Shown: one piece after another, positions 15,789 through 59,022 of the stretch | How the letters are laid out: every line of letters begins with the position of its first letter | Numbering within the stretch: the first letter of the stretch is position 1 | From: an uncultured virus (IMG/VR IMGVR_UViG_3300028595_000010) | Taxonomy: Duplodnaviria > Heunggongvirae > Uroviricota > Caudoviricetes | Strand: one strand, 5' to 3' | DNA length: 61,474 nt | Virus record (IMG/VR): IMGVR_UViG_3300028595_000010 | The notes under the pieces: model-generated | What the model saw: only the letters and a program-made list of their open reading frames with translations | Told to the model about the DNA's origin: nothing | Database searches by the model: none | Position numbers and translations under genes: made by a program

Positions 15789-15906
15789 ATGAGTATACCA
15801 CAAGAATGGATATTTCTGTCATACACATAGGGCTAGAAGCAAATCAAAACCTAGTCCTTCCAAGATCACTAAGACAGAGTTAAAGTTCATTTCTTCCACA
15901 GGATAA
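15789..15906 (+). pseudogene. deleted and frameshifted paralog of 7138..7389
   Basis: MSI then, out of frame, HKNGYFCHTHRARSKSKPSPSKITKTELKFISSTG*, matching the C-terminus of 7138..7389. Confidence 0.8.
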
Positions 15907-15958
15907 TCTAAGGAAAAAAAGAGCTAAGTAAGTAACACTTAGCTCGGCTCTTTAATAG

Positions 15959-16390
15959 TTACGTCCCAAGAGTCTTCTTCCGTTTTGCGGCTGACTCTAA
16001 AGCTACCATGAGAGTAGCCTGGTTCGTAACTGATTTTGCATGAGCTGCTTTTTGCTCATTGGTGAGGTTTCCGACATCCACATTCATCTGCCGACGATGT
16101 GCTCTATACATCTTACGAATAGCACATCGAAAGGATTTGTCATTGTAGTCGACAGCTTCAGAATCCGTAAGAATTCTTAAGCCATTGTCTTCACTCTTAA
16201 TCGTTGGAATCCTACCAGTTTCCTTGTAGATATCCCTTTCGAGTCGAGCCTTCAATGCCATTAAGATGAAACTATATTCCCTGTCAGTCGGAGGTTCATC
16301 GAGTTTGAGTTCCTCAAGAATTGTCGACTTAGGAATGTAAGAACCTTTGGTCTTTGGAAAACCAGCAACTGCAGTTGTGGTTTTGGCCAT
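15959..16390 (-). CDS. 143-aa accessory protein coupled to the RAMP-like gene
   Basis: TAATG stop/start overlap at 16388-16392; GGAGG RBS; ends at a terminator near 15914-15952. Confidence 0.8.
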   Translation of the reverse strand: MAKTTTAVAGFPKTKGSYIPKSTILEELKLDEPPTDREYSFILMALKARLERDIYKETGRIPTIKSEDNGLRILTDSEAVDYNDKSFRCAIRKMYRAHRRQMNVDVGNLTNEQKAAHAKSVTNQATLMVALESAAKRKKTLGT

Positions 16391-16992
16391 TACGCCACCT
16401 CCAGAATCGTGAATCTTCCATGTTTTGGACGCCAGGTTCCCATTCCACACTGCTGCCCACAGAGCTCAATGCTCTGCTTCACAGATGCGATATCCATGAT
16501 GTCAGTATTGATAGACATTTTGAATTTCAAAGACCACACTGGGAAGTATGGACGAGTCCTAATTACAGAAGAGGTTCCTCCGACTTTGCAATCAGTGACC
16601 AGTCTGTAGTTCGGATCAGCGTGGAGCTCGGACAAGGATTTTCCTTTATCCGGGAAGATCAGTTCTGCATCTTCTTCGACGAAACACGCAGCCGGGAATT
16701 GCTTTCCCATTTTGATCTTCTTGGATCCTGAGCGAATGGCGGCTTCGATATGCAAAGACGGAAGAATAATCTTTGCATCATCGATGATTGCACCAGGATG
16801 AATTTCTGGATTGGTATACAGATATGCATACCATTCGGTGTCGGAAATGTCCTGATGGATCTCATCAGTCTTATTCCGAATCTTGGTCAGTTCCTTGAGC
16901 GCCTTAGTCCAGTCGTTCAAGGGGTTCTTGGTTGTGCCACTGTGAATGATCAGAGGACTGATCCCTTCGATGTGGATGTTCAGTGTTTCCAT
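16390..16992 (-). CDS. Cas7/RAMP-like RNA-binding protein (200 aa), candidate guide-RNA effector
   Basis: N-term IHIEGISPLIIHS; LPSLHIEAAI; RTRPYFPVWSLKF; C-term Gly-rich loop GQQCGMGTWRPKHGRF; AGGA RBS before METLN. Confidence 0.7.
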   Translation of the reverse strand: METLNIHIEGISPLIIHSGTTKNPLNDWTKALKELTKIRNKTDEIHQDISDTEWYAYLYTNPEIHPGAIIDDAKIILPSLHIEAAIRSGSKKIKMGKQFPAACFVEEDAELIFPDKGKSLSELHADPNYRLVTDCKVGGTSSVIRTRPYFPVWSLKFKMSINTDIMDIASVKQSIELCGQQCGMGTWRPKHGRFTILEVA

Positions 16993-17020
16993 TGTGGGGT
17001 TTCCTATCTTGTTGTGAAGG

Positions 17021-17080
17021 GGGTTACCGGATGGCGAACAGAAAACCTTTCCATTCATCTCTATTCCTATCCGGTAACCC
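17021..17080 (-). ncRNA. pentamer-repeat unit A (6 pentamers within a 12-bp inverted repeat)
   Basis: Minus strand ccGGA taGGA atAGA gaTGA atGGA aaGGT; flanks GGGTTACCGGAT/ATCCGGTAACCC. Confidence 0.55.
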
Positions 17081-17103
17081 ACGTTCATTAAAGAAATTAT
17101 TAT

Positions 17104-17190
17104 AAAAGGACCGTTTCGATAAGATAGAGAGTATGTCCATTCCATTCCTCTCCTGTCATATCAGCTCATATCAGCTCTAATCCGGTCCTC
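17104..17190 (-). ncRNA. pentamer-repeat unit B (11 pentamers)
   Basis: Pentamers at 17136-17190; AGGACCG/CGGTCCT closing stem; U-tract. Confidence 0.65.
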
Positions 17191-17198
17191 AAAATTTT

Positions 17199-17294
17199 AA
17201 AAGAGCCCCTCCGTAGAAAGGCTCGGAATGCACCTCCGGGCAGATCATCTCCCGTGACTTCCTGTCCTATCACTTCTGCTCCAATCCGCGCACT
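17199..17294 (-). ncRNA. pentamer-repeat unit C (13 pentamers plus 3' hairpin)
   Basis: Pentamers at 17230-17294; GAGCC/GGCTC hairpin and U-tract. Confidence 0.65.
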
Positions 17295-17326
17295 CCCAAA
17301 ATTCAGTATCGATCCTATTAAAAGCT

Positions 17327-17418
17327 AAAAGAGTCCTTTCGAAAAAGGACTCATGTCTTCCACTCATGTCATCACCATTCTCATCCAATCCTTTCTTCTC
17401 CTTTCATGACCAAACCAA
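17327..17418 (-). ncRNA. pentamer-repeat unit D (12 pentamers plus 3' hairpin)
   Basis: Pentamers at 17359-17418; GAGTCCTTT/AAAGGACTC hairpin and U-tract. Confidence 0.65.
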
Positions 17419-17428
17419 GGGAAAATTT

Positions 17429-17532
17429 AAAAGAGGATGTCAAAATTAATTGGCATCCTCTAACCTTTCATTTCATCTCCAGTCCATTCATCGCATCTCT
17501 AATCATCTCATCTCAGCTCCGTTCAACTCCAA
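17429..17532 (-). ncRNA. pentamer-repeat unit E (14 pentamers plus 3' hairpin)
   Basis: Pentamers at 17463-17532; 12-bp hairpin at 17432-17461 and U-tract. Confidence 0.65.
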
Positions 17533-17588
17533 TGAGTAATTAGGAATACTCTTTTTATGAGTGAATGTTTCAGGAGATATCAATTAGA

Positions 17589-17599
17589 TATATATTTAG
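17589..17599 (-). promoter_or_regulatory. CTAAATATATA motif upstream of the pentamer array/RAMP locus
   Basis: Exact copy of the motif about 55 nt upstream of unit E. Confidence 0.7.
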
Positions 17600-18050
17600 A
17601 TTCCTCCTAAGTATTCAAGGAACAAGTTAACGATCTGTAGCCATTTAAAATGGATCCCCCTATACATCCAAAAAAATTCCCACAAAAATATTTCCGACTC
17701 CTCGATCTAAAGTAGATCTCTCCCTATACCAAAAAGGAATTTCCTAAAAGTCCATTAGGAATTGTTTTGAAATAGATAAGAAATTTGCTAGAGAAGTAAG
17801 AAAAAGCGATTTCCCTATAGAGATCAAAATGGTATTATAATAGATTCTCTGGTTTAACCTTAACTTAAACGAACTACCAAACTGTATCCAATCAAGATTT
17901 TTCACAAGATACATTAAGTTCCAACTTGGCTCCTACATAGAGAACAATTGATTTAAGGAAAATTTACCAAAAAAAGACTATCATGGTATTCTCCCAGTAT
18001 CCACTTGAATAGCCAAATAGCCCAAATCCGGCAAAATACCGAATTTGGAC

Positions 18051-18395
18051 TTATTTGGCAAATGAAGAGATTCTAATCTTATACTGATTTTTATCCCAAT
18101 TGAAGTATAAGGCATAATACCTATATGGAGTTCTAAGGAAATATTTACCATTTAAAGTATTTAAGGGTAAGTTATGCCATCCTAAATATTCCCCTTGTGT
18201 AATATTAGCTGTAATCACTTTAGGATTCATATGACAATAAATATAATCCTTAAATTTCTCATTCCATGTGAATGAGTAGAACTCCACTAAATCACTATAA
18301 GAATAAAGCAGATATAGATCTAATACCATTTTAGAACTTAAGAAATAACTTAAGTTCCATCCATTTACAGATACGTGTTTTTTGGGAGAATTCAT
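18051..18395 (-). CDS. hypothetical protein
   Basis: Perfect AAGGAGGTGA RBS. Confidence 0.7.
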   Translation of the reverse strand: MNSPKKHVSVNGWNLSYFLSSKMVLDLYLLYSYSDLVEFYSFTWNEKFKDYIYCHMNPKVITANITQGEYLGWHNLPLNTLNGKYFLRTPYRYYALYFNWDKNQYKIRISSFAK

Positions 18396-18449
18396 GTAAT
18401 CACCTCCTTAGATCATTATGGGCAGCGATTTTTTCTTAATTCTTAATTT

Positions 18450-19370
18450 GCTCGAAATGATAATATTTTACATGTTCGATGTATTCCCTATAGAGTTAGA
18501 CAATTTGCACTCGAAATGATAATATTTTACATGTTTGGTCTTTGCATGAGTATAGCAAACAGTAGAATTTAGTTATAGATTATCCTTTTTTGCTATACGT
18601 ATGAATAAGATTAGTATCTTAAATGAATTCAAGTTATGCTTTGTTGGAACTTTGTTGGAACTTTTAGTATCTTAAATGAATTCAAGTTATACTTTGTTGG
18701 AACTTAAGTGATTATTTGGTAAAAATTGGTTTAAGATACTGATCTTAAATGAGTCTTATTGAAAAATCCATTGTGGGCAGTGAGCAATGTCCATAGAATT
18801 TTGCTCTAATTTTCTACTTCTTGAGCCTGTTGAGAGACTTATTGGAACTTAAATTGGATTTGTGTTAAAATCTATCGGACTTTCCCCTAGGGAATCAATG
18901 AACGGGAAACTAAGTGAGATTATTTTTGGCTTCTTAGTTGGATTTATGTTGGAATTGTGTAGAAATTCCGTTAGATCTTTAGAAGAAGCCTAACTTTAGC
19001 CTTCTAAAGTTCCATAAAAGATTTCCAAAATTAAGATACTATTCTTTAACCGTCCAATAAAGTCTCATCTAAATTCCAATGAAACACCTTCTAAGTCTCA
19101 TCTAATCCTTATCTAAATTCCAATGAAACACCTTCTAAGTCTCATCTAAATTCCAATAAAACAATCTTATAAGGACTTACTTTAGCATTCCATAAAAGAT
19201 TTCCAAAATTAAGATACTATTCTTTAAACTGTTTTATTATTTTACATTTAAATTCCGTCTATAATCCAATACTATCCCCTAATTCCTTTCTAATAGATCT
19301 TAGTCTATCATCTTGTAATAGAATCCTTTCCTCCAATATACTATTTATATTTTTAGTATCTTATCCTAAT
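18450..19370. repeat. non-coding direct/inverted repeat region, candidate replication origin
   Basis: 26-bp DR (18451/18510), about 41-bp DR (18611/18664), 40-bp DR (19010/19188), TAAGTCTCATCTAA-type repeats at 19058-19160, central IR 18977-19009. Confidence 0.7.
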
Positions 19371-26267: not shown

Positions 26268-27731
26268 TTACCAATTGGTTCCTTTGCTCCATGTATAAGT
26301 AATGCTACCAAGAATAACAGTATTCTCATTTACACCAGATGCTAAATCAGGATAGTAAGTAGCAGGATATGGAGAATATTTAATAATACTATTAAGATTA
26401 GTGACATTGGTCCCATACCATCCAGTACCATGACTGGAGTTATACCATCCATTACCAGTTCCAATTATAAGTCGATTTCCAACAAAAGCTGGATCGTCAT
26501 ATACAGCTGCCATTACCAACTGTCTGTTTATTGAATTACAATTCCATGTTTTTCCGTCTTTCGCTGAATTATAATAAGTAGGGCAGACTTCTTGTTTTTT
26601 CCCAGAATCAGATGGAAGATTCCACGTTTTTCCGCACCACACAATAGTACCAGTAGTTCCAGATATAGAAAGTACCATAGATGGTTCGGAACCACCATCA
26701 CATGATAAAGATGGAGTAAAACTACTACTCTAGGAACTACTAGAGCTGCTTATACCACTACTAGAAGATGTAGACGAGGAGCTAGAAGAACTACTTATAC
26801 CACTGCTTGAGGAACTAGAAGAACTGCTACTTGAGGAGCTAGAAGAACTACTTATACCACTGCTTGAGGAACTACTTATACCACTGCTTGAGGAACTAGA
26901 AGAACTGCTAATTCCACTGCTGCTACTAGAGGAAGAACTAGAAGATGTAGACGAGGAACTGCTAATTCCACTGCTGCTACTAGAGGAAGAACTAGAAGAT
27001 GTAGACGAGGAACTACTTGAGGAACTACTTATACCACTGCTGCTACTTGAGGAACTAGAAGAACTGCTACTAGAAGAACTACTTATACCACTGCTGCTAC
27101 TTGAGGAACTAGAAGAACTGCTACTAGAAGAACTGCTTATACCACTGCTGCTACTTGAGGAACTAGAAGATGTAGATGAGGAGCTAGAAGAACTAGAAGA
27201 TGTAGACGAGGAACTACTTGAGGAACTGCTTATACCACTGCTGCTACTTGAGGAACTAGAAGATGTAGATGAGGAGCTAGAAGAACTGCTTATACCACTG
27301 CTGCTACTTGAGGAACTAGAAGATGTAGATGAGGAACTAGAAGAACTGCTACTAGAAGAACTGCTTATACCACTGCTGCTACTTGAGGAACTAGAAGAAC
27401 TGCTACTAGAAGAACTGCTTATACCACTGCTGCTACTTGAGGAGCTAGAAGAACTAGAAGAACTGCTTATACCACTGCTGCTACTTGAGGAACTAGAAGA
27501 TGTAGATGAGGAGCTAGAAGAACTGCTACTAGAAGATATAGAACTTGAACTTGAAGAAGACGGACACTCTTCATAGACCCAATTATGATTGTAGCACTCT
27601 ACACAATCTGAATAAACTCCATCCACAGTCGTATGGGTAGAATCTTCTTCTGTTATTTGTTTGAATCGATAACATGTATCATCGACTCTAATTACAGATC
27701 CCATATCGTTTGGGAAAATGATATTTGCCAT
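26268..27731 (-). CDS. poly-serine linker protein interrupted by one in-frame TAG at 26730-26732
   Basis: N-term Cys domain, about 275 aa of (S)nGI/(S)nT repeats; after the TAG the frame continues SSSFTPSLSCDGGSEPS into MVLSISG... (26268..26678); GAACAAA motif upstream. Confidence 0.7.
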
Positions 27732-35048: not shown

Positions 35049-35439
35049 TTGACATAAGTCCTTCCGATTCAAGTTGACTTATTATCATATTTCCTTTGAT
35101 TCTTATAATTTCTTGTTCAAGATCATTGGAAATGTATTGCAACATTTCAGTATATTCTTTTTGGTTGTGTGATTTGTCCTGAGCAAAGATTTTTATTAAG
35201 TAAGTAACAAAATTGATAAATTGACTGTGATATGTCAAAAGTCGATTTTTCATTATTTGCTTTGCTAAATCGTTTGGTCCTTCGAACTGAAAGATTATCT
35301 TTCTAGATAAGGCTTCTTCAATTGCATCTTTTAATTGCTTATCGTCCATCCGAATATTTTGCATATTATAGTCTTCTCCAGAATATTGAGCGCTTGGGAC
35401 ATTACTTATCAGATTGTGATTGTCATAGTCATTTGTCAT
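35035..35439 (-). CDS. hypothetical protein
   Basis: Overlaps both neighbours by a few codons. Confidence 0.6.
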   Translation of the reverse strand: MTNDYDNHNLISNVPSAQYSGEDYNMQNIRMDDKQLKDAIEEALSRKIIFQFEGPNDLAKQIMKNRLLTYHSQFINFVTYLIKIFAQDKSHNQKEYTEMLQYISNDLEQEIIRIKGNMIISQLESEGLMSNESS

Positions 35440-36517
35440 TTTTGCACGGAGTTATATCAAATACAGGACATGCTCTGCATATACTCTGCATTTTACATTT
35501 GCAGTTTGCAGTTGAGTGAATAAGATTTTTTCTCCACTCAGCAACACGAGGATGCATCCAGATATCTTTGAGAAAATTGTTACAATCAAAGACATCTAAG
35601 CCTTCAGTCCAACCTTTCTCTCCTTCAATAAATGAACATGGAAAGAATTCTCCATGACAACTTATATAGGATGAGAACAATGCTGATTCGCAAGGTTCGC
35701 CGCACATAGAAATCTTTTCTAATTGATCACTATCGATTGTTTGATACCAGCTGGGACAACTACATGAGTCGAACCCATATCCAACATCAGCAGCTACACA
35801 ATGATCAATAAGTTTTTTGTATTTTTCTACAGTTTTTACAACTGAGAATGCAGCTGGATTTCTTCCCTTGGGTTTATATTGTAAGAACACTAAAGCTCTA
35901 AATCCTTGAACGTGTTTCAACTCTTCAATCAGCAAATGAGCACGGTCGTAGGTTTCTTCACTCAACATGTAATGAATATTAACTTGGGGACAACCTGCGT
36001 CTATAAACCGTTTAACAGCGTCTATTGTACGGTTTTTATTAACCAAACTGACTGCAACAGCTCCACATAATTCGGCTGTTTTCTTTGCAACTTTATCAGT
36101 TACCTGAAATCCATTACATGTGTAATTTGGAATGACGCCTTGATTCCTAGAATATTTTAACATTTTCCAGAAGTCTTTGTTAGACTCAATATCACAGATA
36201 CCAAATGCAATCTGTGTAAGAGTCTTAGGCATCTTAGATAAAATAGTTTTAAATTCATCAAGAGACATGTGATGATCTTTTGCATCTTTTCCATTACTCT
36301 TGTAACAATATGGACAATTGCCCATACATATCCCTTCTGAAATTTCTAAGTCCAGTATCTCTGGCCCAAATGGAGACCAAACTGGATCGTCTTCTGAAGA
36401 CATAGTCTTACCCCACCTTATATGGACGCCATTCTTTTTATTGAAGTGATAGTTATATTGTGGAGAACTTAAAATCTTTACTTCATCGTTCTCTTCAACA
36501 TGTGCTATATCGATCAC
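35429..36517 (-). CDS. radical SAM protein with SPASM/twitch-like C-terminus
   Basis: CMGNCPYC (CxxxCxxC); C-term CES...G.FFPCSF...CKC...CRACP. Confidence 0.85.
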   Translation of the reverse strand: MIDIAHVEENDEVKILSSPQYNYHFNKKNGVHIRWGKTMSSEDDPVWSPFGPEILDLEISEGICMGNCPYCYKSNGKDAKDHHMSLDEFKTILSKMPKTLTQIAFGICDIESNKDFWKMLKYSRNQGVIPNYTCNGFQVTDKVAKKTAELCGAVAVSLVNKNRTIDAVKRFIDAGCPQVNIHYMLSEETYDRAHLLIEELKHVQGFRALVFLQYKPKGRNPAAFSVVKTVEKYKKLIDHCVAADVGYGFDSCSCPSWYQTIDSDQLEKISMCGEPCESALFSSYISCHGEFFPCSFIEGEKGWTEGLDVFDCNNFLKDIWMHPRVAEWRKNLIHSTANCKCKMQSICRACPVFDITPCKNDK

Positions 36518-41342: not shown

Positions 41343-41427
41343 TGGTGGGCCAACCTGGATTCGAACCAGGACGTCCTAAGGAACAAGATTTACAGTCTTG
41401 CGAGCCAGCCATTTGCTCAATTGACCC
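41343..41427 (-). tRNA. tRNA-Tyr (GTA)
   Basis: caaga-CT GTA AA-tcttg arm; TTCGAAT; long variable arm; CCA. Confidence 0.9.
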
Positions 41428-41465
41428 ACTATTTAAATTTTGTTCCCTAAGACAATTTTTGGTAT

Positions 41466-41873
41466 CTAAGCTGGAGATCTTCCCATCTGATAGTTGTCAT
41501 AACTCTTCCATGATTTTTTTGGATCAGTGAATGGGTCAAGCTTATTCATAGGATCTTTGATATATCTTTGCCTGTCCCATTTAGTCAAAACATCTTCCCC
41601 CTTAGCCGAGAGACCTGGTTTCTTTTGGCCTGTTGATGTAGTCTTCATTGTAGAGTATTTTCTCAACCTTGGTTCAGATCTCATAAGCTGCTTTTGAGCT
41701 TCCACATCGCCCATCCTAGCAGCCTGAATCCTCTCTCCCTTGCTTCCAGGTTTATTCTGAAAGGCTCGTCTTACTTTAACGGCAGCCTTTCTCATAAGAG
41801 TTGGTTTAATCAGCTCATCAACGTTTTCAATATTCTCAAATAGAATACTGAGAGGTATATTATATAGCGCCAT
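41466..41873 (-). CDS. basic IPxxILFE-leader protein
   Basis: MALYNIPLSILFENIENVDE. Confidence 0.8.
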   Translation of the reverse strand: MALYNIPLSILFENIENVDELIKPTLMRKAAVKVRRAFQNKPGSKGERIQAARMGDVEAQKQLMRSEPRLRKYSTMKTTSTGQKKPGLSAKGEDVLTKWDRQRYIKDPMNKLDPFTDPKKSWKSYDNYQMGRSPA

Positions 41874-42067
41874 TAATATTTTCCTGGTTGGTCCATTATA
41901 TCTCTTTGCATTTCTTCATCAAGGATAAGATCTTCCTCATTAGTGCAGCCTTCACATTGATCTGATTCAGATTCAATTTTTGGAGAATCGGTAGGTAATC
42001 CAAATGTTCCATGTGGGTAACTTCGTTCTTCAAAGAGAACTAGAGGGGGAATGTCATGAATTGCCAT
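41873..42067 (-). CDS. acidic IPxxILFE-leader protein
   Basis: Start reassigned to MAIHDIPPLVLFE. Confidence 0.75.
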   Translation of the reverse strand: MAIHDIPPLVLFEERSYPHGTFGLPTDSPKIESESDQCEGCTNEEDLILDEEMQRDIMDQPGKY

Positions 42068-42443
42068 CTGCTTTCTTACCTTTTTCGTATGCGCTGTTAC
42101 CAAAATCAGCTACAGCTTCATAATATTTGTAAGCTCTACGACGCCTAAGCCATCGCATCAAACCTTTATACCAAGCCTTGGATTTTGAATAGTAATTATC
42201 AATAATCCATAAAACATTTTCTAAGAATATTCTATCAGCTCGTCTTTTATCATCTTTGGTCTTTCCCTCATAATACATCCAATCATGGACGTTGCATGCT
42301 TCAGTAATGGAAAGGCCATAAATTGTATCTGGAATTAAATCAAACTTCCATCCGCCAGGTCCACATCCATTACAAACTTCTTTTTTAAGACCCTTTGAAG
42401 CATTAATGTAGCTTTTAGGTTTATAAATCTCGTTAGTCGACAT
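42054..42443 (-). CDS. phospholipase A2-like / DUF1353-like protein
   Basis: CNGCG...ACNVHDWMY...AD..FL.N. Confidence 0.65.
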   Translation of the reverse strand: MSTNEIYKPKSYINASKGLKKEVCNGCGPGGWKFDLIPDTIYGLSITEACNVHDWMYYEGKTKDDKRRADRIFLENVLWIIDNYYSKSKAWYKGLMRWLRRRRAYKYYEAVADFGNSAYEKGKKADGNS

Positions 42444-42791
42444 TTTCTGGATCTCCTACAAATGTATTAAACTGTAGGCAGCTACTAAGATACCTTATAA
42501 TTTAGCGGGAAATTCCAGTAATGATTTTTGATCGAGAAAGATATCAATTGAAACTTTGTTAGGGTGCAGTTTTCTATTAAGTATAACTTTTATAATAAGG
42601 CTTAACTTGGTCAGACTGCCTTCTCATTTATTTGTTCTCATTTCTGCCAACATTTTCTCCATTTTCATGATATTAGATTCCAAAGATGCAACTCTTTGAC
42701 CTCCAATATCAATCAGTTTTTGGAGAAGTTTCTTATCATGTTGTATTTTCTTTTCTAGTGCTTTCTCATCTAATTTTATAGGTTTCATTCT

Positions 42792-43307
42792 TTAATCCTC
42801 ATCTTTGCTACGTATCGTCACAGAGGGAGCACCATATCTTCCTGTTTCTGCATCCTCTGGCATCCATGTGATATCGCCAGCACTATTGTTTCTAGCATCG
42901 TAAGGAGTTGGTAGTTCAGCTTCAGCACTATATGTTTTAACGCCAAAATAGAATCTTCCAAATAAACTAATAAAGAATGAAGGAAGTCTTATTTTACTAT
43001 CCCATACGAACCAATAATTTCCTTTCCAAGGATTGGTTATGTCATACTTGTAATCTCTAACTTCTTGTCTTGGTATGTTGTCTGGATTCTTTTCATTTAA
43101 CTTTTCAACAAGTTTGTCTGGTAGTTTGTCCCAATTGTAATCTCTAATCTTGGTATCATCGGGCCACCGACTTTGAGGTCTCAACCATCTGACCATAAAT
43201 AAGTCTAATTTGAAATACTTTGGGAGAACACCTTTCTTATAACTTCCACAATAGAATCCATCTTCGTCCCATTGAATTGTTAGTCCTTTAGGTGGCTTGT
43301 ATCCCAT
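42792..43307 (-). CDS. hypothetical protein
   Basis: GGAG RBS; GAACAAA motif at 43359. Confidence 0.65.
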   Translation of the reverse strand: MGYKPPKGLTIQWDEDGFYCGSYKKGVLPKYFKLDLFMVRWLRPQSRWPDDTKIRDYNWDKLPDKLVEKLNEKNPDNIPRQEVRDYKYDITNPWKGNYWFVWDSKIRLPSFFISLFGRFYFGVKTYSAEAELPTPYDARNNSAGDITWMPEDAETGRYGAPSVTIRSKDED

Positions 43308-43416
43308 GATTCTTCTCCAATTCTGTCTTTTTATCCTACATTAACATTTATTAGATAATTTGTTCCCTTAATCAATAAATGGATTTATGTGAAACCAATA
43401 TTCAATTCCTTCATAT

Positions 43417-43644
43417 TCATCGTATAGCATTATTTCTAGGTCTTACTTCTAAATTGCTTGCATCACACCATCCAACAATCTTTGCTTTTATTCCATAACA
43501 GTTTGCAAGAAATCTATTTTTAGAAAACATCCAATTGGTGGATGGAGATATTCCTGCCTTGCTGCAATAATTATCAAAATTGAATCTGTGAGTGGGTAGT
43601 CTGTCAATGTTTTCTAAATCAGGATAAGATAGATTATCTTCCAT
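43417..43644 (-). CDS. hypothetical protein
   Basis: ORF adjacent to the next gene. Confidence 0.5.
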   Translation of the reverse strand: MEDNLSYPDLENIDRLPTHRFNFDNYCSKAGISPSTNWMFSKNRFLANCYGIKAKIVGWCDASNLEVRPRNNAIR

Positions 43645-43908
43645 TTATAGTATATCTCCTACTTTGCCGTAAGATTTAGATAATAATTCCTCTAGATCTT
43701 CAAACCAAAGATCTCCTGGTGCTACTGAATAACAAGTAAGCCATTTGTTATAGACTTTCTTGTGGTCAGCGACTCTGATTACACACCACTCGTCTTTTCG
43801 ATTGAGGTCCATGTAAATAGACCCTGTGGAGGCAATTCTTGTTTCTACGACTCTCCAGCCCATGCTTTCGGCTAAAGATTTCACTTCTTTTTGTATTTTG
43901 ATTAACAT
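43645..43908 (-). CDS. hypothetical protein
   Basis: Start reassigned to MLIKIQ (outside the tRNA-like RNA); TGSIY...IRVADH. Confidence 0.6.
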   Translation of the reverse strand: MLIKIQKEVKSLAESMGWRVVETRIASTGSIYMDLNRKDEWCVIRVADHKKVYNKWLTCYSVAPGDLWFEDLEELLSKSYGKVGDIL

Positions 43909-43914
43909 AGTTAG

Positions 43915-44026
43915 TGCTCTTGGCAGGATTCGAACCTGCAACTTTGTCGATATCCAGCCGAGACAAGTTCCTCATAGGCTGGTATCCCGGAACCTTCGGC
44001 GCGTCTGCCAATTCCGCCACAAGAGC
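43915..44026 (-). ncRNA. tRNA-Leu-derived RNA with non-canonical, expanded anticodon/variable region (112 nt)
   Basis: Acceptor GCTCTTG/CAAGAGC; Leu-type D arm; T arm GCAGG-TTCGAAT-CCTGC; no canonical anticodon arm; no CCA. Confidence 0.7.
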
Positions 44027-44038
44027 AATAATTTCTTT

Positions 44039-44083
44039 TGGTACACCCACTCGGATTCGAACCGAGGACCTACTGAGTGCAAC
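44039..44083 (-). pseudogene. 3' half of tRNA-Ala (TGC)
   Basis: T TGC AC loop, tcagt, T arm CTCGG-TTCGAAT-CCGAG, TGGGTGT-A-CCA; 5' half absent. Confidence 0.65.
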
Positions 44084-44559
44084 TATAAAGACTTCCTTAT
44101 AATGTTAGCTAAAGATAGCCACCATTTTTTAAACAAGACAGGATCTTTTTCGTACCACAAATTAGCAGTAATTATTATTCTGGGCAATCCTTCTTGTCCT
44201 ACATTATAACAACATGATAAATGTTTATGTTTATTTATTTTGGAGGACACTTCTTTTGCATAATTTTCATCTCTATTCATCAATCTGAAAATTACAAAAG
44301 TCAAATGTCTCTCAGAATCTCCTTGACATGAACTTCTTAATTCTATCTCTTTGATAGAATTTAAGTCATTTAGAGCTTTCATTGGAATATATTTATCAAT
44401 GCCTATTCCTCTATACATCATTTGAGGATGACTTGCTTCTCTTCCTGATATGGGAGGATTAGGCATCTTCTTATTAAGACAAAAATATGCAAACTCTGGA
44501 GCATTGAGTTTTTGTTTTTGCCTAAACAACTGCTCGCATAATAATTGATACTTTTTCAT
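44083..44559 (-). CDS. hypothetical protein abutting the half-tRNA
   Basis: Own GAACAAA motif at 44565; stop codon abuts the anticodon loop. Confidence 0.7.
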   Translation of the reverse strand: MKKYQLLCEQLFRQKQKLNAPEFAYFCLNKKMPNPPISGREASHPQMMYRGIGIDKYIPMKALNDLNSIKEIELRSSCQGDSERHLTFVIFRLMNRDENYAKEVSSKINKHKHLSCCYNVGQEGLPRIIITANLWYEKDPVLFKKWWLSLANIIRKSL

Positions 44560-44683
44560 ATTAGTTTGTTCTAACTATTAGAAAAACCAACTTTGGCAAC
44601 CAGCAACTATTACGTGATATCATGCTACAAGACCGGGCAAGCTCTCAAATCCTCTGATTGCATTTTTACATTTGTCATGTTTT

Positions 44684-44759
44684 TGGTGGATCGCCTCAGA
44701 ATCGAACTGAGATATCTCGGGCTTCAACCGAGAGCCTTGACCACATCGGCTAACGATCC
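44684..44759 (-). tRNA. tRNA-Phe (GAA)
   Basis: ctcgg-TT GAA GC-ccgag; CCA. Confidence 0.9.
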
Positions 44760-44777
44760 AAATCTGATTACAAGACT

Positions 44778-44854
44778 TGGCGGGATATACGGAACTCGAA
44801 TCCGTGACCTTCTCCGTGACAGGGAGACGTTCTAGCCAACTGAACTAATACCCC
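44778..44854 (-). tRNA. tRNA-Asp (GTC)
   Basis: tctcc-CT GTC AC-ggaga; CCA. Confidence 0.9.
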
Positions 44855-44891
44855 AATTTAAGCCTTTGTTCTCAGATTTTATTTTTGGTAT

Positions 44892-45230
44892 CTATTTTGC
44901 ATTCGGATCAAATGCGATTGGGCCACCAGCAGGTCTTCCTTGAGGATCCACAATTCGATTTGCTTCTTTAGCTTGTTCATTCATCTGAGTAACATATTGC
45001 ATCATATACTTTGTATGATTCTCAAAAGCATCTTCGAGAGTTACACCAGATGGAAATGGGAATTGTACTGGCATCTTTCTTTTAACACCAGGAGTCACTT
45101 CCTGTTCAAGTGCGCCGCCGCCTTGAACAACCTCGATATCTGTTGGATCTTTGACGTTTTCAAGTACTGTTACTTGCTGATCTTTCTCTTTACACACATA
45201 CTGCTTCACTTCACGGATTACTTGGTTCAC
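44892..45230 (-). CDS. hypothetical protein
   Basis: AAGGA RBS. Confidence 0.65.
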   Translation of the reverse strand: MNQVIREVKQYVCKEKDQQVTVLENVKDPTDIEVVQGGGALEQEVTPGVKRKMPVQFPFPSGVTLEDAFENHTKYMMQYVTQMNEQAKEANRIVDPQGRPAGGPIAFDPNAK

Positions 45231-45427
45231 GATTTTGTTTCCTTTTTCTTGTTTTCGAGTTGTTCAAATAAGAGTATTCTTATTTGTTCCGATAGATTTT
45301 TATGATGGAAGAGTTGGTTAGGACTCTCTTCATGAAACTTATCGATGAACTCTTGGTATTCTGGAGATTTCATAAGTTCCAGTAACCAAGTGCCATGCAT
45401 ACTAGGAATTTGAATCATTCCCTTCAT
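45227..45427 (-). CDS. hypothetical protein
   Basis: AAGGAG RBS. Confidence 0.6.
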   Translation of the reverse strand: MKGMIQIPSMHGTWLLELMKSPEYQEFIDKFHEESPNQLFHHKNLSEQIRILLFEQLENKKKETKS

Positions 45428-45459
45428 TGTTTGACTCCTTATTGGATATCTTGATCAAC

Positions 45460-45840
45460 TTATAACCAAGCTGCTTTGCTGCCATATCCAGCAACTCCTT
45501 CAAATCCTTCTCTTCCATTGCGGAAGAGTTGTACGTCCTTGCTAACATTTTTCCACGATGGCCCCAACAGCAACCAATGAAACATTGTCAGCATGATGCC
45601 ACTCAACAACTTGAGCAGCGTGTCCATGATAACTGTATTCTCCGCTTGCAGGGATGTTAACAGAGCGACCAAGTGATGCTTCATTAATGCTATAGCCAGA
45701 TTCTTACAAAAGTCAGGATCTGTTTCAATAGCATGTAAAGCATCATTACATATCACCACTGTCGTATTGTTTCCCATAATCTCTCCTTTTAAAGCGTTTA
45801 ACTCCATGACGATTTCCGTAGATTGGGTATTTACTTCCAT
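45460..45840 (-). CDS. hypothetical protein (start probably MGNNTT; 3' part may be frameshifted)
   Basis: AAGGAG RBS before MGNN. Confidence 0.45.
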   Translation of the reverse strand: MEVNTQSTEIVMELNALKGEIMGNNTTVVICNDALHAIETDPDFCKNLAIALMKHHLVALLTSLQAENTVIMDTLLKLLSGIMLTMFHWLLLGPSWKNVSKDVQLFRNGREGFEGVAGYGSKAAWL

Positions 45841-45929
45841 CGCCCACTAACTAAAACACCAAACCTTTCTTTTAGGCTGTTGCCTTTTGTGACGATTCGG
45901 CTTTCCAAATTTCATACTTCCTTAGGATT

Positions 45930-46005
45930 TGGCTCCTCAGACAGGACTCGAACCTATGACAGGGTGATTAACAGCCACCTGCTCTACCAACTGAGCTACT
46001 GAGGA
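45930..46005 (-). tRNA. tRNA-Asn (GTT)
   Basis: ggtgg-CT GTT AA-tcacc; CCA. Confidence 0.92.
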
Positions 46006-46013
46006 ACGACAAA

Positions 46014-46514
46014 TTATTTTTCTTGAAGTTCTTTTTTCTTCTCTTCAAATCTCATTTTTGCTATCTGGTCATGTAGGCTGTTTGTAACTACATGAATTTG
46101 ATATTCTGAGCTAAGATCTGAAAACCATTCTCCCCATTCATTTAGTTCCCTTTTGGGAATTTTCACTTCTGTATTTATATTTTCCCTTTTTAGAGCAGCT
46201 TTTATAAAGGCGATGTGGATGAATTTGTCTTCCGCCACAAACTCTTGTCGATGGTCGGTAATGACAACTTCCCATGTTTCTTTCTTCTTCCAGTGGAATG
46301 TAATATCCACTCTTGCCTTTTTGAGATTTTTGAACATTGTGCGCAAGTGTAATGGATGCTTGGAGAATTGAGGAATCTCTTCCTCGCTATATGAATTATA
46401 TCTTCCCCATTCATTTTTTCCGTGCCAATGTTTAGATTCCTTAGAATAGCATAACACATTCTCAAGAATTAAAATATCTAACTCTTTGAAGGTTGTTGCT
46501 ATTACGTCATTCAT
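46014..46514 (-). CDS. hypothetical protein
   Basis: Start reassigned to MNDVIA (AAGGAG RBS). Confidence 0.6.
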   Translation of the reverse strand: MNDVIATTFKELDILILENVLCYSKESKHWHGKNEWGRYNSYSEEEIPQFSKHPLHLRTMFKNLKKARVDITFHWKKKETWEVVITDHRQEFVAEDKFIHIAFIKAALKRENINTEVKIPKRELNEWGEWFSDLSSEYQIHVVTNSLHDQIAKMRFEEKKKELQEK

Positions 46515-46554
46515 ATACTTACTCCTTTTTGTATTTGTTCCAATATACGTATGT

Positions 46555-47307
46555 TTACTTCCTTTCATTGCTAAAGAATGATGATGAAATAAGATGATCA
46601 ATTGTTGGTTCTGATTCAATTTTTCCCATTTTACAATCGAACACAACAGTTCGTATATAGCCTTCCAGATTCGATGGAAGACCATGAAATTCCGTTCCTT
46701 CTTGGTATTTCTTAAAGTCAACATGATAGTGTCCAAAGAACCAATAACGAGGATCAAGTTTGTCCTTAATAATGTCTAACCGCTCTCTAGTAGGAATTGC
46801 TAGTAGATGATTATTTGATACTACATTAACAGAGAAAGGGCAATCATGACTGAATATAATATCCATGGGAACAAATTCCTTATGGATTAAACATTTATCA
46901 ACATCATAATTACTAATCTCTTCTTCATGATACCATGAATGACCTTCAATGCGATGAGGTCTATCGATTGAAAATGCGCCACCAATAGCAACACAATCCA
47001 TATTGCCAATTTTTAGATAAGTTCCCCTTGATATATGATAAACATTAGGAACTATTTCTGTATATTCTTCATTTTGATTCAATTTTGGATGCTCTTCGTG
47101 ATTTCCATCTATAAAATAGATAGGCATATATGGAGATGCTTTTGGAAAGTTTGCATTATGAGTAGGCCAATATCCAAAATCTCCAAGTTGAAAGATAGCA
47201 TCACAAATGTGATCTCTTGCTGTCTTTATAACTTTCTTTAAGAATGTTGCATCAGCATGAACATCTGCAACAATCAATATTCTTTCATAATTACTTAGAT
47301 CAATCAT
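46555..47307 (-). CDS. calcineurin-like metallophosphoesterase
   Basis: ADVH, GDFG, DGNHE, SHDCP, FGHYH; start MIDLS. Confidence 0.85.
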   Translation of the reverse strand: MIDLSNYERILIVADVHADATFLKKVIKTARDHICDAIFQLGDFGYWPTHNANFPKASPYMPIYFIDGNHEEHPKLNQNEEYTEIVPNVYHISRGTYLKIGNMDCVAIGGAFSIDRPHRIEGHSWYHEEEISNYDVDKCLIHKEFVPMDIIFSHDCPFSVNVVSNNHLLAIPTRERLDIIKDKLDPRYWFFGHYHVDFKKYQEGTEFHGLPSNLEGYIRTVVFDCKMGKIESEPTIDHLISSSFFSNERK

Positions 47308-47453
47308 TGCCAAAGTCCATTCTTTAAAATATCCCAAAGGAATATTAAAGCAATAATTCCAATAATTCCAATAAATACAAGAATTGGAATAATGACTCCG
47401 GCGCCGATGATTCCTAATGTCCACAACAACCATACTGGGATTTCAATAGTCAT
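47304..47453 (-). CDS. 49-aa hydrophobic membrane protein (absent from the track)
   Basis: MTIEIPVWLLWTLGIIGAGVIIPILVFIGIIG...; AAGGAG RBS. Confidence 0.65.
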   Translation of the reverse strand: MTIEIPVWLLWTLGIIGAGVIIPILVFIGIIGIIALIFLWDILKNGLWQ

Positions 47454-47469
47454 AATTAACTCCTTCGTC

Positions 47470-47555
47470 TGGTGCACTTGGAGAGACTCGAACTCTCATG
47501 AGCTAAGCTCACATGGCCCTCAACCATGCGCGTCTGCCAGTTCCGCCACAAGTGC
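47470..47555 (-). tRNA. tRNA-Leu (GAG)
   Basis: catgg-TT GAG GG-ccatg; variable arm; CCA. Confidence 0.92.
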
Positions 47556-47577
47556 ATTTGACGTTTGTTCTTAAAAA

Positions 47578-49356
47578 TTAGGAATAGATTCTTTTTGGTG
47601 TGACGATATCCTTTCGGTTTGAATTAGATCCATTGAAGTCACATCCATTAAATACTCCGTAAACTTGTTTAAGATACTCATTGTATCTTGCCTTAGCACA
47701 TTCAATTGAGAAATTATTTACAGCCCAATGTCTGCAATCAATATTCTTAATGTTGTTAATATTTCGTATGGCCCAATCAAACTGGTCCATGTTTCTACAT
47801 CTATATCCTGTAACTCCATGAACTACGGTGTCAACAAAGCCTCCCCAATCACTAGAGATGACTGGAGTTCCACACATTGCTGCTTCAATTGCGATGTACC
47901 CAAATGGTTCATTGAATCTACTAGGGCATATCAATACCTTAGCTCTTCTAAGATGATCAATCTTGGATTCAAAATCTAAATATCCTAACATCTCAACATG
48001 TGGAGGAACCTCATCTAGATTTCCCTGACCTGCCATTTTGAGTTTCATTCCTGTTCGTTGACAAGTCTTAATGGCTACGTCAATCCCCTTGACTGAATCA
48101 ATTCTTCCCAAGAAGAGTGCCCAATCTTCTTTCTCTTCCTGATATTTGAATTCATCAGGTTCCACAAATCCTGGGATGACTGCATCATACCATTGGGGAG
48201 TCTTGTTAGTTGAGCCAAGAATGAAATTCATTACAGAATAGCTTTCAAACACTCTGAAAGGAGCGAAAGATCTGAAACATCCAATACTTGGCTCAACTAC
48301 AATTGCATCTGGAAATGCATCTGCTACAGCCTTATGTCCACATCCATACCAACAGAGAATGAAATCTCTAGAGCGATATCGTTTTCTTAATTCACGGATA
48401 GTGTTCTGTGTGAATTCTTTATGACAATCATCTCCAATCTTGCAGTTGTATGATGTCTTAATCCAATCGTAGTTCCCGTCATAACATTTATCAAAAGTCT
48501 TATCTGTTGTGACAGTTACATGTTCTGCTCCCTCAACCTCAGATCTTTCATGCCCATAATGATAAATTGTATGACCGTCCTCTCCCATAAACTTACAGAA
48601 TCTTCGAACCTTCTGAGTGAATGCGCAATGAGCAAACTCTTTACTTGTAACAGTGTGTGGGATCCCCAAGACATGCATCCTGAACTTCCCTTTGAACATC
48701 CCCTTGAGTCCAACAGGATTAAGTGGAATGATTTCAACGTTTGGATATGCTTTTGCTACCCACTGTTCAAATTCTTTCCATCGATCAAGGTGGTATTGAG
48801 ATTCATAATCCTGATAAGATATATCTTCATTGAATCTTCTTCCATCCTTTATATCTGCCCCAACAATATAAATCTTAGAAACACCTGTCCATAATAGGAA
48901 CTGCAAAGCCGGAAAAGCAATAGATCCACCAGCTGCTACATGTTTATTTTCTAAATCATTTGAAAAATCAATTGGAACTTTTGGATCCTCAATTCTAGAT
49001 GTCCCCACTTGAACAATTGGCCCATGAGTAAATTGATAAGGTATCGCTCCAGCTTTATCCGCATTATCTCTTATCGGAGTAGATAACGTAACTCCATAGA
49101 ATTTTGCTATGTTTGGTTGATACGAATCATATTCTTCAGTTCTATTTACATACGAATTCTTATGATTTGGTTTTCCAGGATCCTGAATAAAGAAATAATC
49201 AAGATCTAGTCCTTCGTGGAAAATTGAAGTATTAACACCAACCTTAATAAGATTAGGTTCTGGTTCCACATAATCATTTAGAGTTGGACCTGTGCAGAAT
49301 AATACTGCCGACTTACCTTTATGAACATCCTTGTATGCTGAAATCATATCTTCCAT
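47578..49356 (-). CDS. two-domain glycosyltransferase: DUF115/sialyltransferase-like plus GT-B (GT4-like)
   Basis: CTGPTL...GVN...GGSI..ALQ...IYIVGAD; FLGRI..KG; EPFG...IEA..CGTPVI. Confidence 0.8.
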   Translation of the reverse strand: MEDMISAYKDVHKGKSAVLFCTGPTLNDYVEPEPNLIKVGVNTSIFHEGLDLDYFFIQDPGKPNHKNSYVNRTEEYDSYQPNIAKFYGVTLSTPIRDNADKAGAIPYQFTHGPIVQVGTSRIEDPKVPIDFSNDLENKHVAAGGSIAFPALQFLLWTGVSKIYIVGADIKDGRRFNEDISYQDYESQYHLDRWKEFEQWVAKAYPNVEIIPLNPVGLKGMFKGKFRMHVLGIPHTVTSKEFAHCAFTQKVRRFCKFMGEDGHTIYHYGHERSEVEGAEHVTVTTDKTFDKCYDGNYDWIKTSYNCKIGDDCHKEFTQNTIRELRKRYRSRDFILCWYGCGHKAVADAFPDAIVVEPSIGCFRSFAPFRVFESYSVMNFILGSTNKTPQWYDAVIPGFVEPDEFKYQEEKEDWALFLGRIDSVKGIDVAIKTCQRTGMKLKMAGQGNLDEVPPHVEMLGYLDFESKIDHLRRAKVLICPSRFNEPFGYIAIEAAMCGTPVISSDWGGFVDTVVHGVTGYRCRNMDQFDWAIRNINNIKNIDCRHWAVNNFSIECAKARYNEYLKQVYGVFNGCDFNGSNSNRKDIVTPKRIYS

Positions 49357-50387
49357 CCAATCTCATGAGGTCTCGGTTTACCATGAAAACAAACAACACT
49401 TGCATCTTCAGGAACTCCATCTTTACAATGAAGTTTATAGCTGTATGTCTTTACGATATTCTGAATGATATCAACGTTCCATTTGTGTGCTTTAAGCAAC
49501 GATTCAATAAGATGTTGGTCCCACATTTTAGGATTCTTTCTGATTGAATCTTCTTGAGACATTGCATTTCTGTAGATGAATTGAAGTGGACTATTCCATG
49601 CCATGACTCCACTAGCAAGTTCAGGATTGCAAAAGTCTTTAAGCATTGCAAATGGGCCATCGTAATTGAGGAGTGAATCAATGTTGCCTACAATTATAGT
49701 ATCTAAATCGAAATAGACAACTCTGCCTGCAAAGTTTTTAAACATCTCAATTTTAGACCACCATCCAGGAAGATCATCTTGTAATGGAATTTTAGTTCCT
49801 GGCAACTCTTCATCTGAATCTGTGAAACACCAAAAATTGAATGGAAGATTGGTATTCTGTTTTACTCCTTCGTAAATCCTTCTCACATATTCTGATGTGT
49901 AATCTCCTCCAGTTTTGTATACTGTATAAATTGTAGCAACTGAAGAAGAATGAGTATGCAATCTTATATTAATTACATTACTCATTGCCACAGATGGAGG
50001 ATTGCCATGAAGAGTAGTTGAAAATTTTGCTCCCCATTCATTAGTTCCAAAATCGTGGCATATGACCACATCGCTGGTATCTAAAAGTTTAGGAACAAGT
50101 AACTTCCTATCTCTAACATACTGCTCATTATCTAAAAATGTAAATCCGCATTTCGGATATGGATATTGATCCCAGCTAGTGATATGATTTACTTTACATA
50201 GAGACTTATACTTTGATCCCCATACCATATCAGTAGTATAAACTTCAAAAGATCTCTTTTGAAATTTTGCAATTTCAGCCAGTAAAGGAGTGGAATAATC
50301 TCCACATCCCATTTCGATCATATCGCCATCAGATTGTAATGCCGCCGCAATAAGCAGTTGTTGATGTGACGCATATGGATCCATCAT
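49344..50387 (-). CDS. methyltransferase-like plus GT-A (GT8-like) glycosyltransferase
   Basis: IEMGCG; GWWSKIEMF; YFDLD (DxD); CFHGKPRPHE. Confidence 0.75.
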   Translation of the reverse strand: MMDPYASHQQLLIAAALQSDGDMIEMGCGDYSTPLLAEIAKFQKRSFEVYTTDMVWGSKYKSLCKVNHITSWDQYPYPKCGFTFLDNEQYVRDRKLLVPKLLDTSDVVICHDFGTNEWGAKFSTTLHGNPPSVAMSNVINIRLHTHSSSVATIYTVYKTGGDYTSEYVRRIYEGVKQNTNLPFNFWCFTDSDEELPGTKIPLQDDLPGWWSKIEMFKNFAGRVVYFDLDTIIVGNIDSLLNYDGPFAMLKDFCNPELASGVMAWNSPLQFIYRNAMSQEDSIRKNPKMWDQHLIESLLKAHKWNVDIIQNIVKTYSYKLHCKDGVPEDASVVCFHGKPRPHEIGWKI

Positions 50388-50480
50388 ATTAATTCCTTAC
50401 AGATTCAAATAATTAGTTTCTAATGTATTAAATGAGACTGAGAAATTCCTGCACAATTTTCCCAGTCTCATGGAAAAAAT

Positions 50481-50822
50481 TTATTCTATCTGAGCTATTC
50501 CATTAGTATCAAATCCAGTAATTCTGCCTTCAAGATTCAATATAGCAATAGCTCCAATATAAGTTGATATGCCTATATCGGATATCCATTGCTTAATCTT
50601 AGTAATCTCATCAGATTCAAGATTAACTGATTCTTTTCCTTTAATCTTATTCATCAAATCAAATCTGGACATGTATTCTGATACAGGTATTTTCTTATCG
50701 TTGAATAAGATTGCCTGCTCATATAAAGCTCCAAACGTATAATCTGAACCATTCATTTTCGCAGGTCGACCATCCATCATTTTCACAAAAACTTTCAAAT
50801 TCTTTACTTCGGCCATCGTCAA
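50481..50822 (-). CDS. hypothetical protein
   Basis: AAGGA RBS. Confidence 0.6.
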   Translation of the reverse strand: MTMAEVKNLKVFVKMMDGRPAKMNGSDYTFGALYEQAILFNDKKIPVSEYMSRFDLMNKIKGKESVNLESDEITKIKQWISDIGISTYIGAIAILNLEGRITGFDTNGIAQIE

Positions 50823-50852
50823 TTCCTTTTTCAGTTATTACAGATTATAAAA

Positions 50853-51158
50853 TTATCTTCCTGCATTACGAAGCTGATTAACTGTCACTCCATAATCTCC
50901 AGTTGTCACAGCGGCATTTTTGAAAAGATTATTAAACTGCTGAGCTAATGTGATAAATGAAGCGATTTGTGCGGCTGTCACATTATAATCAGTAAGATCT
51001 TCATCAGTAATCTCATCTACTCCACCTGAATTATAACCACAATCAAAATAAATTCCTTCAATATCAGTACACATATCCATTAATTGAACTGCATTTTGAT
51101 TTAAAGAAATGATTGATTGGGCGAATTTAGTCTTTGGATTTACTGGAATTGTTGCCAT
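50853..51158 (-). CDS. hypothetical protein (possibly virion-associated)
   Basis: GAGGA RBS; GAACAAT variant upstream. Confidence 0.6.
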   Translation of the reverse strand: MATIPVNPKTKFAQSIISLNQNAVQLMDMCTDIEGIYFDCGYNSGGVDEITDEDLTDYNVTAAQIASFITLAQQFNNLFKNAAVTTGDYGVTVNQLRNAGR

Positions 51159-51222
51159 ATTTATCCTCGTTTTTTAGTAAGTTGCCTTTTATTATTGTTC
51201 TGATTATATTAAAAGTTTATCT

Positions 51223-52026: not shown

Positions 52027-52728
52027 TTGGCATTATCCTCTTATATGGATGATCTGAATCTAGAATAGTAGTAATACCCCACATCCATACAAGATACCCT
52101 TCAACAGATTCCATTTCTGAATCTGATAATCCATAATTAAAGAATAGAATTTCTGCTATTCCTCCAGCAAAAGATTCGCCGCCTGATGAGTTAGAAAATA
52201 AATGCATTAGTGACGGATTGGATGTTCCAACATTACCGAACGCTCGCTGTTTTCCGCCTGTACGTAATTTAGAAGATGATCCGTTATATACACACGATAC
52301 AATATTAGTTTCAGTTGTATGAACAAGACCATCACTAATACTTTCTCCAGACCATGCTGTGATAATGGAATTTCTATTGTATCCGATATTTCCGGCATTT
52401 CCAGTTCCATAGCAGAGACGTTGTTTGTCTCCTGTTGCCGTCCTTTTACTCACCACAATAATAGTATGAGGTTGTGTCTGTCCAAACCCAGTCATAATCA
52501 TGCGAGAATCTTTATTGGAGTATGGAAGATCAAATCCATTTAGAGTAGTACCTCCTAATTCCGGATAAAGACTAGCTTCTGATGCGTCATTGCCATTGCC
52601 GCTTATATCGGCCCAACCAGTTACATCAGTACCAGATGTTGTAAATGTATCCGGTCGAGCAGCTGTTAACCAGGCATCAGGACCTGTTGTAAGATCTGAT
52701 GGATCCCATATTCTAGGTATTATCATTC

Positions 52729-52732
<4 letters not shown>
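52019..52732 (-). CDS. LamG/ConA-like fibre-associated protein
   Basis: WLTAA...WADISG...GGIAEIL...EGYL..W...HPYK. Confidence 0.65.
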
Positions 52733-58653
<5,921 letters not shown>

Positions 58654-58984: not shown

Positions 58985-59022
58985 TATTAAAATTCCTCCA
59001 ATGAAATGAGTTAGTAATAACT

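Follow-up and report, generated by a model that had tools for sequence, protein, structure and literature searches.

A series of five minus-strand arrays (17532-17021) in the window, by which we mean the whole 61,474-nt stretch of DNA analysed here (IMG/VR record IMGVR_UViG_3300028595_000010, an uncultured virus), very probably constitutes the guide-RNA part of a phage VIPR locus, in which five putative vrRNA units are followed by vipr, a vap1-like gene and a terminator, and in which the canonical scaffold is altered; this reading draws on sequence comparison and on analogy with published systems. On this reading the locus is a VIPR member with a K-G-A scaffold, and lies within the already reported spread of scaffolds. 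A preliminary description of this DNA had proposed an information-bearing guide array, a proposal that gains support because a Vipr homolog and a vap1-like gene adjoin the arrays, which is the architecture of VIPR; guide function we infer from this homology and layout.

VIPR (Viral Interference Programmable Repeat) is described in preprints of 2026 as a CRISPR-related, RNA-guided DNA-silencing system that is carried mostly by phages and proviruses, and that is made up of Vipr, a minimal RAMP protein with an RRM core, a G-loop and a thumb, of the accessory gene vap, and of vrRNAs in which 9-16 YNNGG repeats precede a structured 3' tail, each pentamer consisting of a constant triplet and a hypervariable NN (bioRxiv 10.64898/2026.04.26.720920). 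According to the same preprint the vrRNA tail of the SUSP1 clade is invariant and contains a pseudoknot, perturbation of GGY abolished silencing in SUSP1 (GGY>GGA is among the scaffold changes of its fig. S12B), and NNNGG, YNNNG and NNNNG occur as alternative repeats. The SUSP1 structure paper reports one Vipr protomer per repeat, a thumb that flips bases out, contacts of G1 with H17 and D177 and of G2 with R138 and W178, and a Y3 pocket that sterically excludes purines (10.64898/2026.04.26.720927). A study employing a genomic language model reports 21 clusters with non-canonical triplets, and names GAC/NN, CAC/NN, WGT/NN and TGH/NN in its section 2.3 (10.64898/2026.10.21.760802); satellites are further reported to carry decoy or 'solo' vrRNAs, which redirect the VIPR of another element (10.64898/2026.10.15.759431). 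K-G-A is not named in the text of 10.64898/2026.04.26.720920 (with its supplement) or of 10.64898/2026.10.21.760802, a comparison that covers their wording; the logos of fig. S17 of the former and fig. S10 of the latter may include it.

Units E, D, C, B and A, vipr, vap and a terminator-like hairpin follow one another in this order on the same strand:

17461..17532, minus strand: candidate vrRNA unit E, repeat tract of 14 units of K-G-A/NN
17422..17461, minus strand: 3' tail of unit E, a hairpin then a U-rich run
17357..17416, minus strand: candidate vrRNA unit D, repeat tract of 12 units
17327..17352, minus strand: 3' tail of unit D, a 9-bp hairpin plus UUUU, terminator-like
17228..17292, minus strand: candidate vrRNA unit C, repeat tract of 12 units, or 13 counting the last TGCAT
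17199..17224, minus strand: 3' tail of unit C, a hairpin plus UUUU
17104..17190, minus strand: candidate vrRNA unit B, 11 units (17188-17134) with arms GAGGACCG (17190-17183) and CGGTCC + UUUU (17113-17104)
17021..17080, minus strand: unit A, 6 units (17072-17043) in a 12-bp inverted repeat (17080-17069 / 17032-17021)
16390..16992, minus strand: vipr gene, 200 aa, assigned by homology and predicted RAMP fold
15959..16390, minus strand: putative vap (vipr-accessory) gene, 143 aa, assigned by homology
15921..15945, minus strand: terminator-like hairpin and T-run closing the operon

The arrays combine a near-invariant G and a mostly constant A with a free NN pair. Counted in the register D-G-A-N-N of the minus strand they hold 55 pentamers (E 14, D 12, C 12, B 11, A 6), or 56 with the extra TGCAT of unit C, which is the total that the preliminary description had given for its five units; the triplet tallies reported there were likewise reproduced number for number on recounting (GGA 23, TGA 17, AGA 6, GGT 5, TGC 3, or 4 with TGCAT, and TCA 1). 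Across the 55 units, position 1 of the triplet is G in 28, T in 21 and A in 6 (0.63 bit), position 2 is G in 54 (1.87 bit), in keeping with the near-invariant middle G noted earlier, and position 3 is A in 47 and a pyrimidine in eight (1.26 bit). The dinucleotides, which had been said to vary freely, do so: the two N positions carry 0.04 and 0.20 bit, 16 of 16 combinations occur, and NN differs from unit to unit. The strict 5-nt period that had been claimed shows in the autocorrelation of G, which has its maxima at lags 5, 10 and 15 (0.29, 0.26 and 0.30) and is near zero or negative at other lags. This period is unique in the window: scanned over its whole length and on both strands, 'GA' at a 5-nt stride reaches at least 6 of 10 at these five places alone (at best 10/10), the best score on the plus strand being 5/10. 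Phase is constant inside each unit, and varies from one unit to another. The earlier observation that phase is kept without indels while the sequence is not homogenized, unlike in a slippage microsatellite, is borne out, the lack of homogenization by the presence of all 16 dinucleotides.

A stem-loop stands at the 3' end of every unit and a U-run follows most of them, the five tails being dissimilar in sequence. Units E, D and C end in a local GC hairpin and a T-run (a U-run in RNA), and the tracts of units B and A are enclosed by pairing 5' and 3' flanks (inverted repeats), with TTTT also after the 3' arm of B; both arrangements had been described before and both were seen here. With 11-14 pentamers, units B to E lie within the range of about 9-16 of VIPR RNAs; unit A, with six, falls under it, ends 29 nt before the vipr ATG (16992) on the same strand, and may be a short vrRNA or a leader element. 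Rfam at gathering thresholds returned only five tRNA matches in the window, none of them in the array region, and no CRISPR-type repeat appeared in the Tandem Repeats Finder or Rfam output for the window.

Homology, together with a structure model, clearly identifies the product of the 200-aa gene as a Vipr homolog with a predicted Cas7/Csm3-like RAMP fold. Its residues 1-196 match the PDB entry 36pp 'SUSP1 Vipr protein' (phmmer, E 5.7e-20), and a family profile of 67 sequences matches the protein at E 7.3e-58; an exhaustive HMMER search places 1940 cluster representatives in the Vipr family at E <= 0.001. The AlphaFold2 model (pLDDT 96.9) finds its best Foldseek matches among Csm3/Cas7-type RAMP chains of type III, IV and VII complexes, 74 of them at E <= 0.001. 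PHROGs place the protein in phrog_4652, of which the function is not annotated, and Pfam and NCBIfam returned no family for this open reading frame. Homologs of about 30% identity were found by tblastn in 131 phage records, mostly of Felix-O1-like phages; none of 50,697 phage records matched 15900-19000 in blastn, a single-protein search with Vipr returned no relative in viral contigs or metagenome contigs, and a word-based protein search recovered the query's own cluster alone, for Vipr and for vap.

The 143-aa gene, the ATG of which overlaps the vipr stop codon (TAATG), is on homology a vap1-like accessory gene. In profile comparisons (hhalign) its family matches gene 55 of phage Andreotti, which follows the vipr of that phage, with a probability of 97.6% (E 3.9e-12), and matches at 95.2% the 'DNA binding protein' that follows the Vipr homolog of Gordonia phage MakoManhole; the protein is also 38% identical to the neighbour of vipr in L205, a metagenome contig. 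Its predicted fold (pLDDT 91.8) had no Foldseek match at E <= 0.001, weaker hits being mostly winged-helix regulators, and VIA wide matched the C-terminal helical hairpin only (Z <= 7.2).

Arrays of this kind recur beside Vipr genes in other genomes. The Vipr of phage Andreotti matches that of SUSP1 across all 195 residues (E 2.2e-128), with three differences in the printed alignment; the Andreotti locus is therefore a SUSP1-clade VIPR. This gene has five arrays of 5-nt period around it, two upstream and three downstream, in which GGT or TGT is the constant triplet, and their position around a Vipr homolog therefore ties the arrays to the gene. A generic period-5 detector proved too permissive in AT-rich DNA and a G-anchored caller was used instead. 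The Vipr alignment was used to retrieve 80 IMG/VR loci, all 80 with a match to the Vipr profile; in 79 of them this caller found G-anchored 5-nt arrays on the strand of the gene, mostly GGC or GGY. Calls numbered 462 on the gene strand and 217 on the opposite one, though GC-rich DNA is a source of false positives for this caller. At least 121 loci came from a scan for GA-stride arrays, mostly plain microsatellites or coding repeats, and among the matches listed six contigs have an open reading frame with the Vipr profile in the fetched flank. The closest relative of the window Vipr (43% identity) is that of L205, where vipr lies at 485-1069 and four arrays reading TGT/NN lie upstream of it, at 95-461. 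In IMG/VR, L176 (2792-4407) has six and L202 (2911-4169; on the same contig as L059) has three GGA/NN arrays around an Asp-type Vipr gene, and the window is therefore not alone in having a purine at scaffold position 3.

As a separate observation, L045-L047 (one IMG/VR contig), L112, L023, L086 and L116 contain long non-homogenized arrays of N-GAC-N pentamers, of up to 25 units, with several arrays in tandem and conserved linkers between them. Open reading frames beside these arrays match the Vipr profile weakly (E 1e-8 to 1e-11), and in L112 and L045 a vap-like reading frame is present too.

The scaffold of the window, K-G-A/NN, departs from the canonical GGY triplet, position 1 being G, T or A and position 3 mostly A. 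In the protein, the contact residues H17, R147 (equivalent to R138), W187 (W178) and R188 (R179) are kept, and Thr186 stands at the place of SUSP1 Asp177, both in the alignment to 36pp and in a profile alignment of 85 Vipr proteins, among which the D177-equivalent is Asp in 82, Glu in two and Thr in one, namely the window. The L205 Vipr likewise has Thr at this place in the G-loop; among the best 150 representatives, a regular expression for the G-loop matched 119, with Thr in eight, the window's own cluster included. For a test of covariation a further 80 Thr-type loci were added. At position 1 the median share of G is 0.90 for 58 Asp-type loci versus 0.52 for 13 Thr-type loci, these 13 being the loci, out of 82 of the Thr type, in which the caller registered arrays; the difference has a one-sided Mann-Whitney p of 1.4e-6 between loci that are related and are not independent events, and three of the 13 Thr-type loci keep about 85% G. 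Replacement of Asp177, a G1 contact in SUSP1, by Thr fits the relaxed first base of the K-G-A scaffold. Position 3 follows no simple A-versus-Y rule: the residues of the Y3 pocket are identical in L176 and L202, with GGA arrays, and in L124, with GGY arrays. In a quick tree the window sits on a long unresolved branch, L176 and L202 group together and apart from it, and the label 'A at position 3' requires two changes.

As perturbation of GGY abolishes silencing in SUSP1, the function of a K-G-A scaffold rests on an assumed co-adaptation of the window Vipr. Taken further, the K-G-A scaffold and the Thr186 Vipr might form an orthogonal pair, re-specified by the Asp177-to-Thr change together with a modified Y3 pocket, which the GGY-type vrRNAs of competing phages or satellites could neither load nor hijack; we offer this tentatively, and rather doubt it. 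Were it true, viruses in conflict would insulate themselves through scaffold divergence, and such pairs would be a natural source for orthogonal programmable VIPR tools.

By analogy with SUSP1, each unit would give rise to a transcript of about 75-105 nt, along which Vipr protomers would polymerize, one per pentamer. Adjacent protomers would, in pairs, hold each constant triplet in a flipped-out position, leaving the two free bases of each pentamer to pair with double-stranded DNA, the matching strand reading NNxNNx... (the 1-nt-skip rule), and pairing would keep a competing mobile element from being transcribed. That the RNAs are made and loaded, that the skip rule applies to the K-G-A variant, and that targets exist are all inferred from this analogy.

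For a search of targets, each unit was read by the 1-nt-skip rule (NNxNNx...). In the window, unit E has no site within three mismatches, and self-scores were at shuffle level (22/28 for unit E against a shuffle maximum of 21, and for the other units no score above the best shuffled one); the fetched loci, 0.8 Mb in all, gave no score above the shuffle maximum. Scans of the larger collections covered exact patterns only, such that targets with mismatches would escape them: viral contigs hold no exact pattern of units E (13 NN), C (11), B (11) or D (10), and genome contigs none of unit C (10 NN). The 10-NN core of unit E has 13 matches in genome contigs, all in-frame within open reading frames and encoding the acidic peptide TA-[D/E]-[D/E]-[F/L]-[D/E]-[D/E]-[I/M]-L-[D/E], a common acidic helix motif. 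Eight of the 13 were sent to Pfam, where six proved to be unrelated cellular families (GntR regulator, ketopantoate reductase PanE, ABC transporter, adenylosuccinate lyase, C13 peptidase and, weakly, gluconate dehydrogenase) and two had no family; we treat all 13 as chance because just 0-4 of the 8 untested NN bases agree.

The phage stretch is present in three DNA runs, all from marine sediment metagenomes, and no RNA run is listed as a holder; contigs of two of the DNA runs have arrays identical to those of the window. In the third (X3), contig cover breaks off at 16992, where vipr starts, and returns at 17659, leaving 16993-17658 uncovered between near-identical flanks, at a low depth of 3-8. 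This gap is a pattern also expected from a strain with a different vrRNA set.

Several other readings of the arrays were weighed against that of a VIPR guide locus. They might derive from vrRNAs and no longer guide their own Vipr, either as decaying copies or as decoy or 'solo' vrRNAs turned against the VIPR of another element, and the departure of the scaffold from GGY at two of three positions, the heterogeneous tails, and the want of a target in exact-pattern and shuffle-controlled scans would all suit such derivatives. We nonetheless consider this improbable, given that phase is maintained without indels across 11-14 pentamers in four units and G2 in 54 of 55, that the cognate Vipr retains its G2 contacts and has altered exactly the G1 contact, that the arrays recur unchanged in two other DNA runs, and that intact Vipr genes are bordered by GGA/NN arrays in L176 and L202. 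Our initial idea was a different one, namely that the arrays are protein-titrating or attenuator RNAs, serving without any guiding as decoys or leaders for an RNA-binding protein of ring or filament form, TRAP-like or CsrA-like, and controlling read-through into the operon downstream. TRAP binds (G/U)AG repeats at 5-nt spacing and CsrA binds GGA, here the commonest triplet; a hairpin and U-run after each array, and the end of the series 29 nt before the first ATG of the operon, would also be in keeping with attenuation. This idea was dropped once the neighbouring gene proved to encode a Vipr homolog, and is very improbable in view of the recurrent pairing of arrays and Vipr in Andreotti and 80 IMG/VR loci, and of 16/16 dinucleotides that differ by unit, a diversity that a pure binding platform does not need. 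Nor did Pfam find a TRAP or CsrA family in the 20 open reading frames submitted from the window, or the PHROGs and NCBIfam scans an RNA-binding regulator.

That the periodicity reflects functionless slippage microsatellites, or chance, can be put aside almost entirely; a weak period-5 row of Tandem Repeats Finder (17468-17519) speaks for it, and it is refuted by the whole-window scan and by NN composition, the units being non-homogenized, with all 16 dinucleotides, strand-specific, provided with a hairpin each, and the sole such locus on either strand of 61 kb.

Set beside the SUSP1-type (type II) VIPR, the locus, which we read as a VIPR guide locus, is alike in being phage-borne, in its Vipr homolog with a predicted RAMP fold and vap1-like neighbour, in its several putative vrRNAs of 11-14 pentamers that combine a constant triplet with free NN, and in the equivalents of H17, R138, W178 and R179, which are kept. 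It differs in having K-G-A where SUSP1 has G-G-Y and Thr186 where SUSP1 has Asp177, in placing five units all upstream, where SUSP1 has one upstream and three downstream, and in tails that are mutually unlike, with no conserved pseudoknot tail seen in the window; homologs of the SUSP1 clade share only about 30% identity with its Vipr (tblastn). The non-canonical arrays of 10.64898/2026.10.21.760802 resemble it as 5-nt arrays beside Vipr-like folds with a fixed triplet other than GGY, although K-G-A is outside the examples named in that text and may be included in the logos of its fig. S10. With the Cas7/Csm3 backbone of class 1 CRISPR systems the locus shares the RAMP fold (Foldseek matches comprise Csm3, Cmr and Csf2 chains), and VIPR shares with that backbone the descriptions of one protomer per fixed guide step and of a thumb that flips bases out. 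The VIPR step is, however, 5 nt rather than 6, with three bases hidden and two read, and the window has a single RAMP gene alone, with no repeat-spacer array, cas genes or adaptation module. The (G/U)AG leaders of TRAP and GGA sponges of the CsrB type are likewise short purine triplets at fixed or near-fixed spacing in RNA, but no such protein is encoded among the reading frames scanned, Vipr is the partner gene, and the spacer bases are maximally diverse.

VIPR is so recent that each well-documented natural variant helps to define what the system tolerates. The present locus has a purine where the SUSP1 structure paper reports that purines are sterically excluded, and its relaxed first base coincides with the loss of the G1-reading Asp, which offers concrete and testable co-changes of protein and RNA (T186D; KGA to GGY). 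It hints, moreover, at scaffolds diverging into mutually orthogonal sets, and illustrates that such arrays can be recognized in the letters alone, without tools.

The remainder of the window is phage-like, with a collagen-like tail fibre, a virion structural protein, an exonuclease and glycosyltransferases among its PHROGs matches. All four window matches of TATAGGGRR lie at 17656-18492 on the minus strand, inside an 840-nt span immediately upstream of the arrays; this count is not significant (at least 4 in 20 of 100 shuffles), and the clustering could mark phage promoters. Between the arrays and an ORF-poor region lies a 114-aa reading frame (18051-18395, minus) with a strong Shine-Dalgarno sequence and no PHROGs, Pfam or NCBIfam family. 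Further out, a 22/44-nt tandem repeat (19060-19163, minus) sits in a largely ORF-free stretch of 1.5 kb, with a sequence of about 35 nt (…aatagtatcttaattttggaaatcttttatgga…) duplicated either side of it (18990-19260), and may be an origin or regulatory region. A 333-aa reading frame without family (26730-27731, minus) consists almost wholly of 54-57-nt tandem repeats. Seven tRNA genes (Tyr, Phe, Asp, Asn, Leu and two Ser) lie at 41343-59981 on the minus strand, and near them are a polynucleotide kinase/phosphatase-like reading frame (60172-61131) and a radical-SAM reading frame (35429-36517). A 1974-aa collagen-repeat protein (52729-58653, minus) matches many PHROG tail-fibre families.
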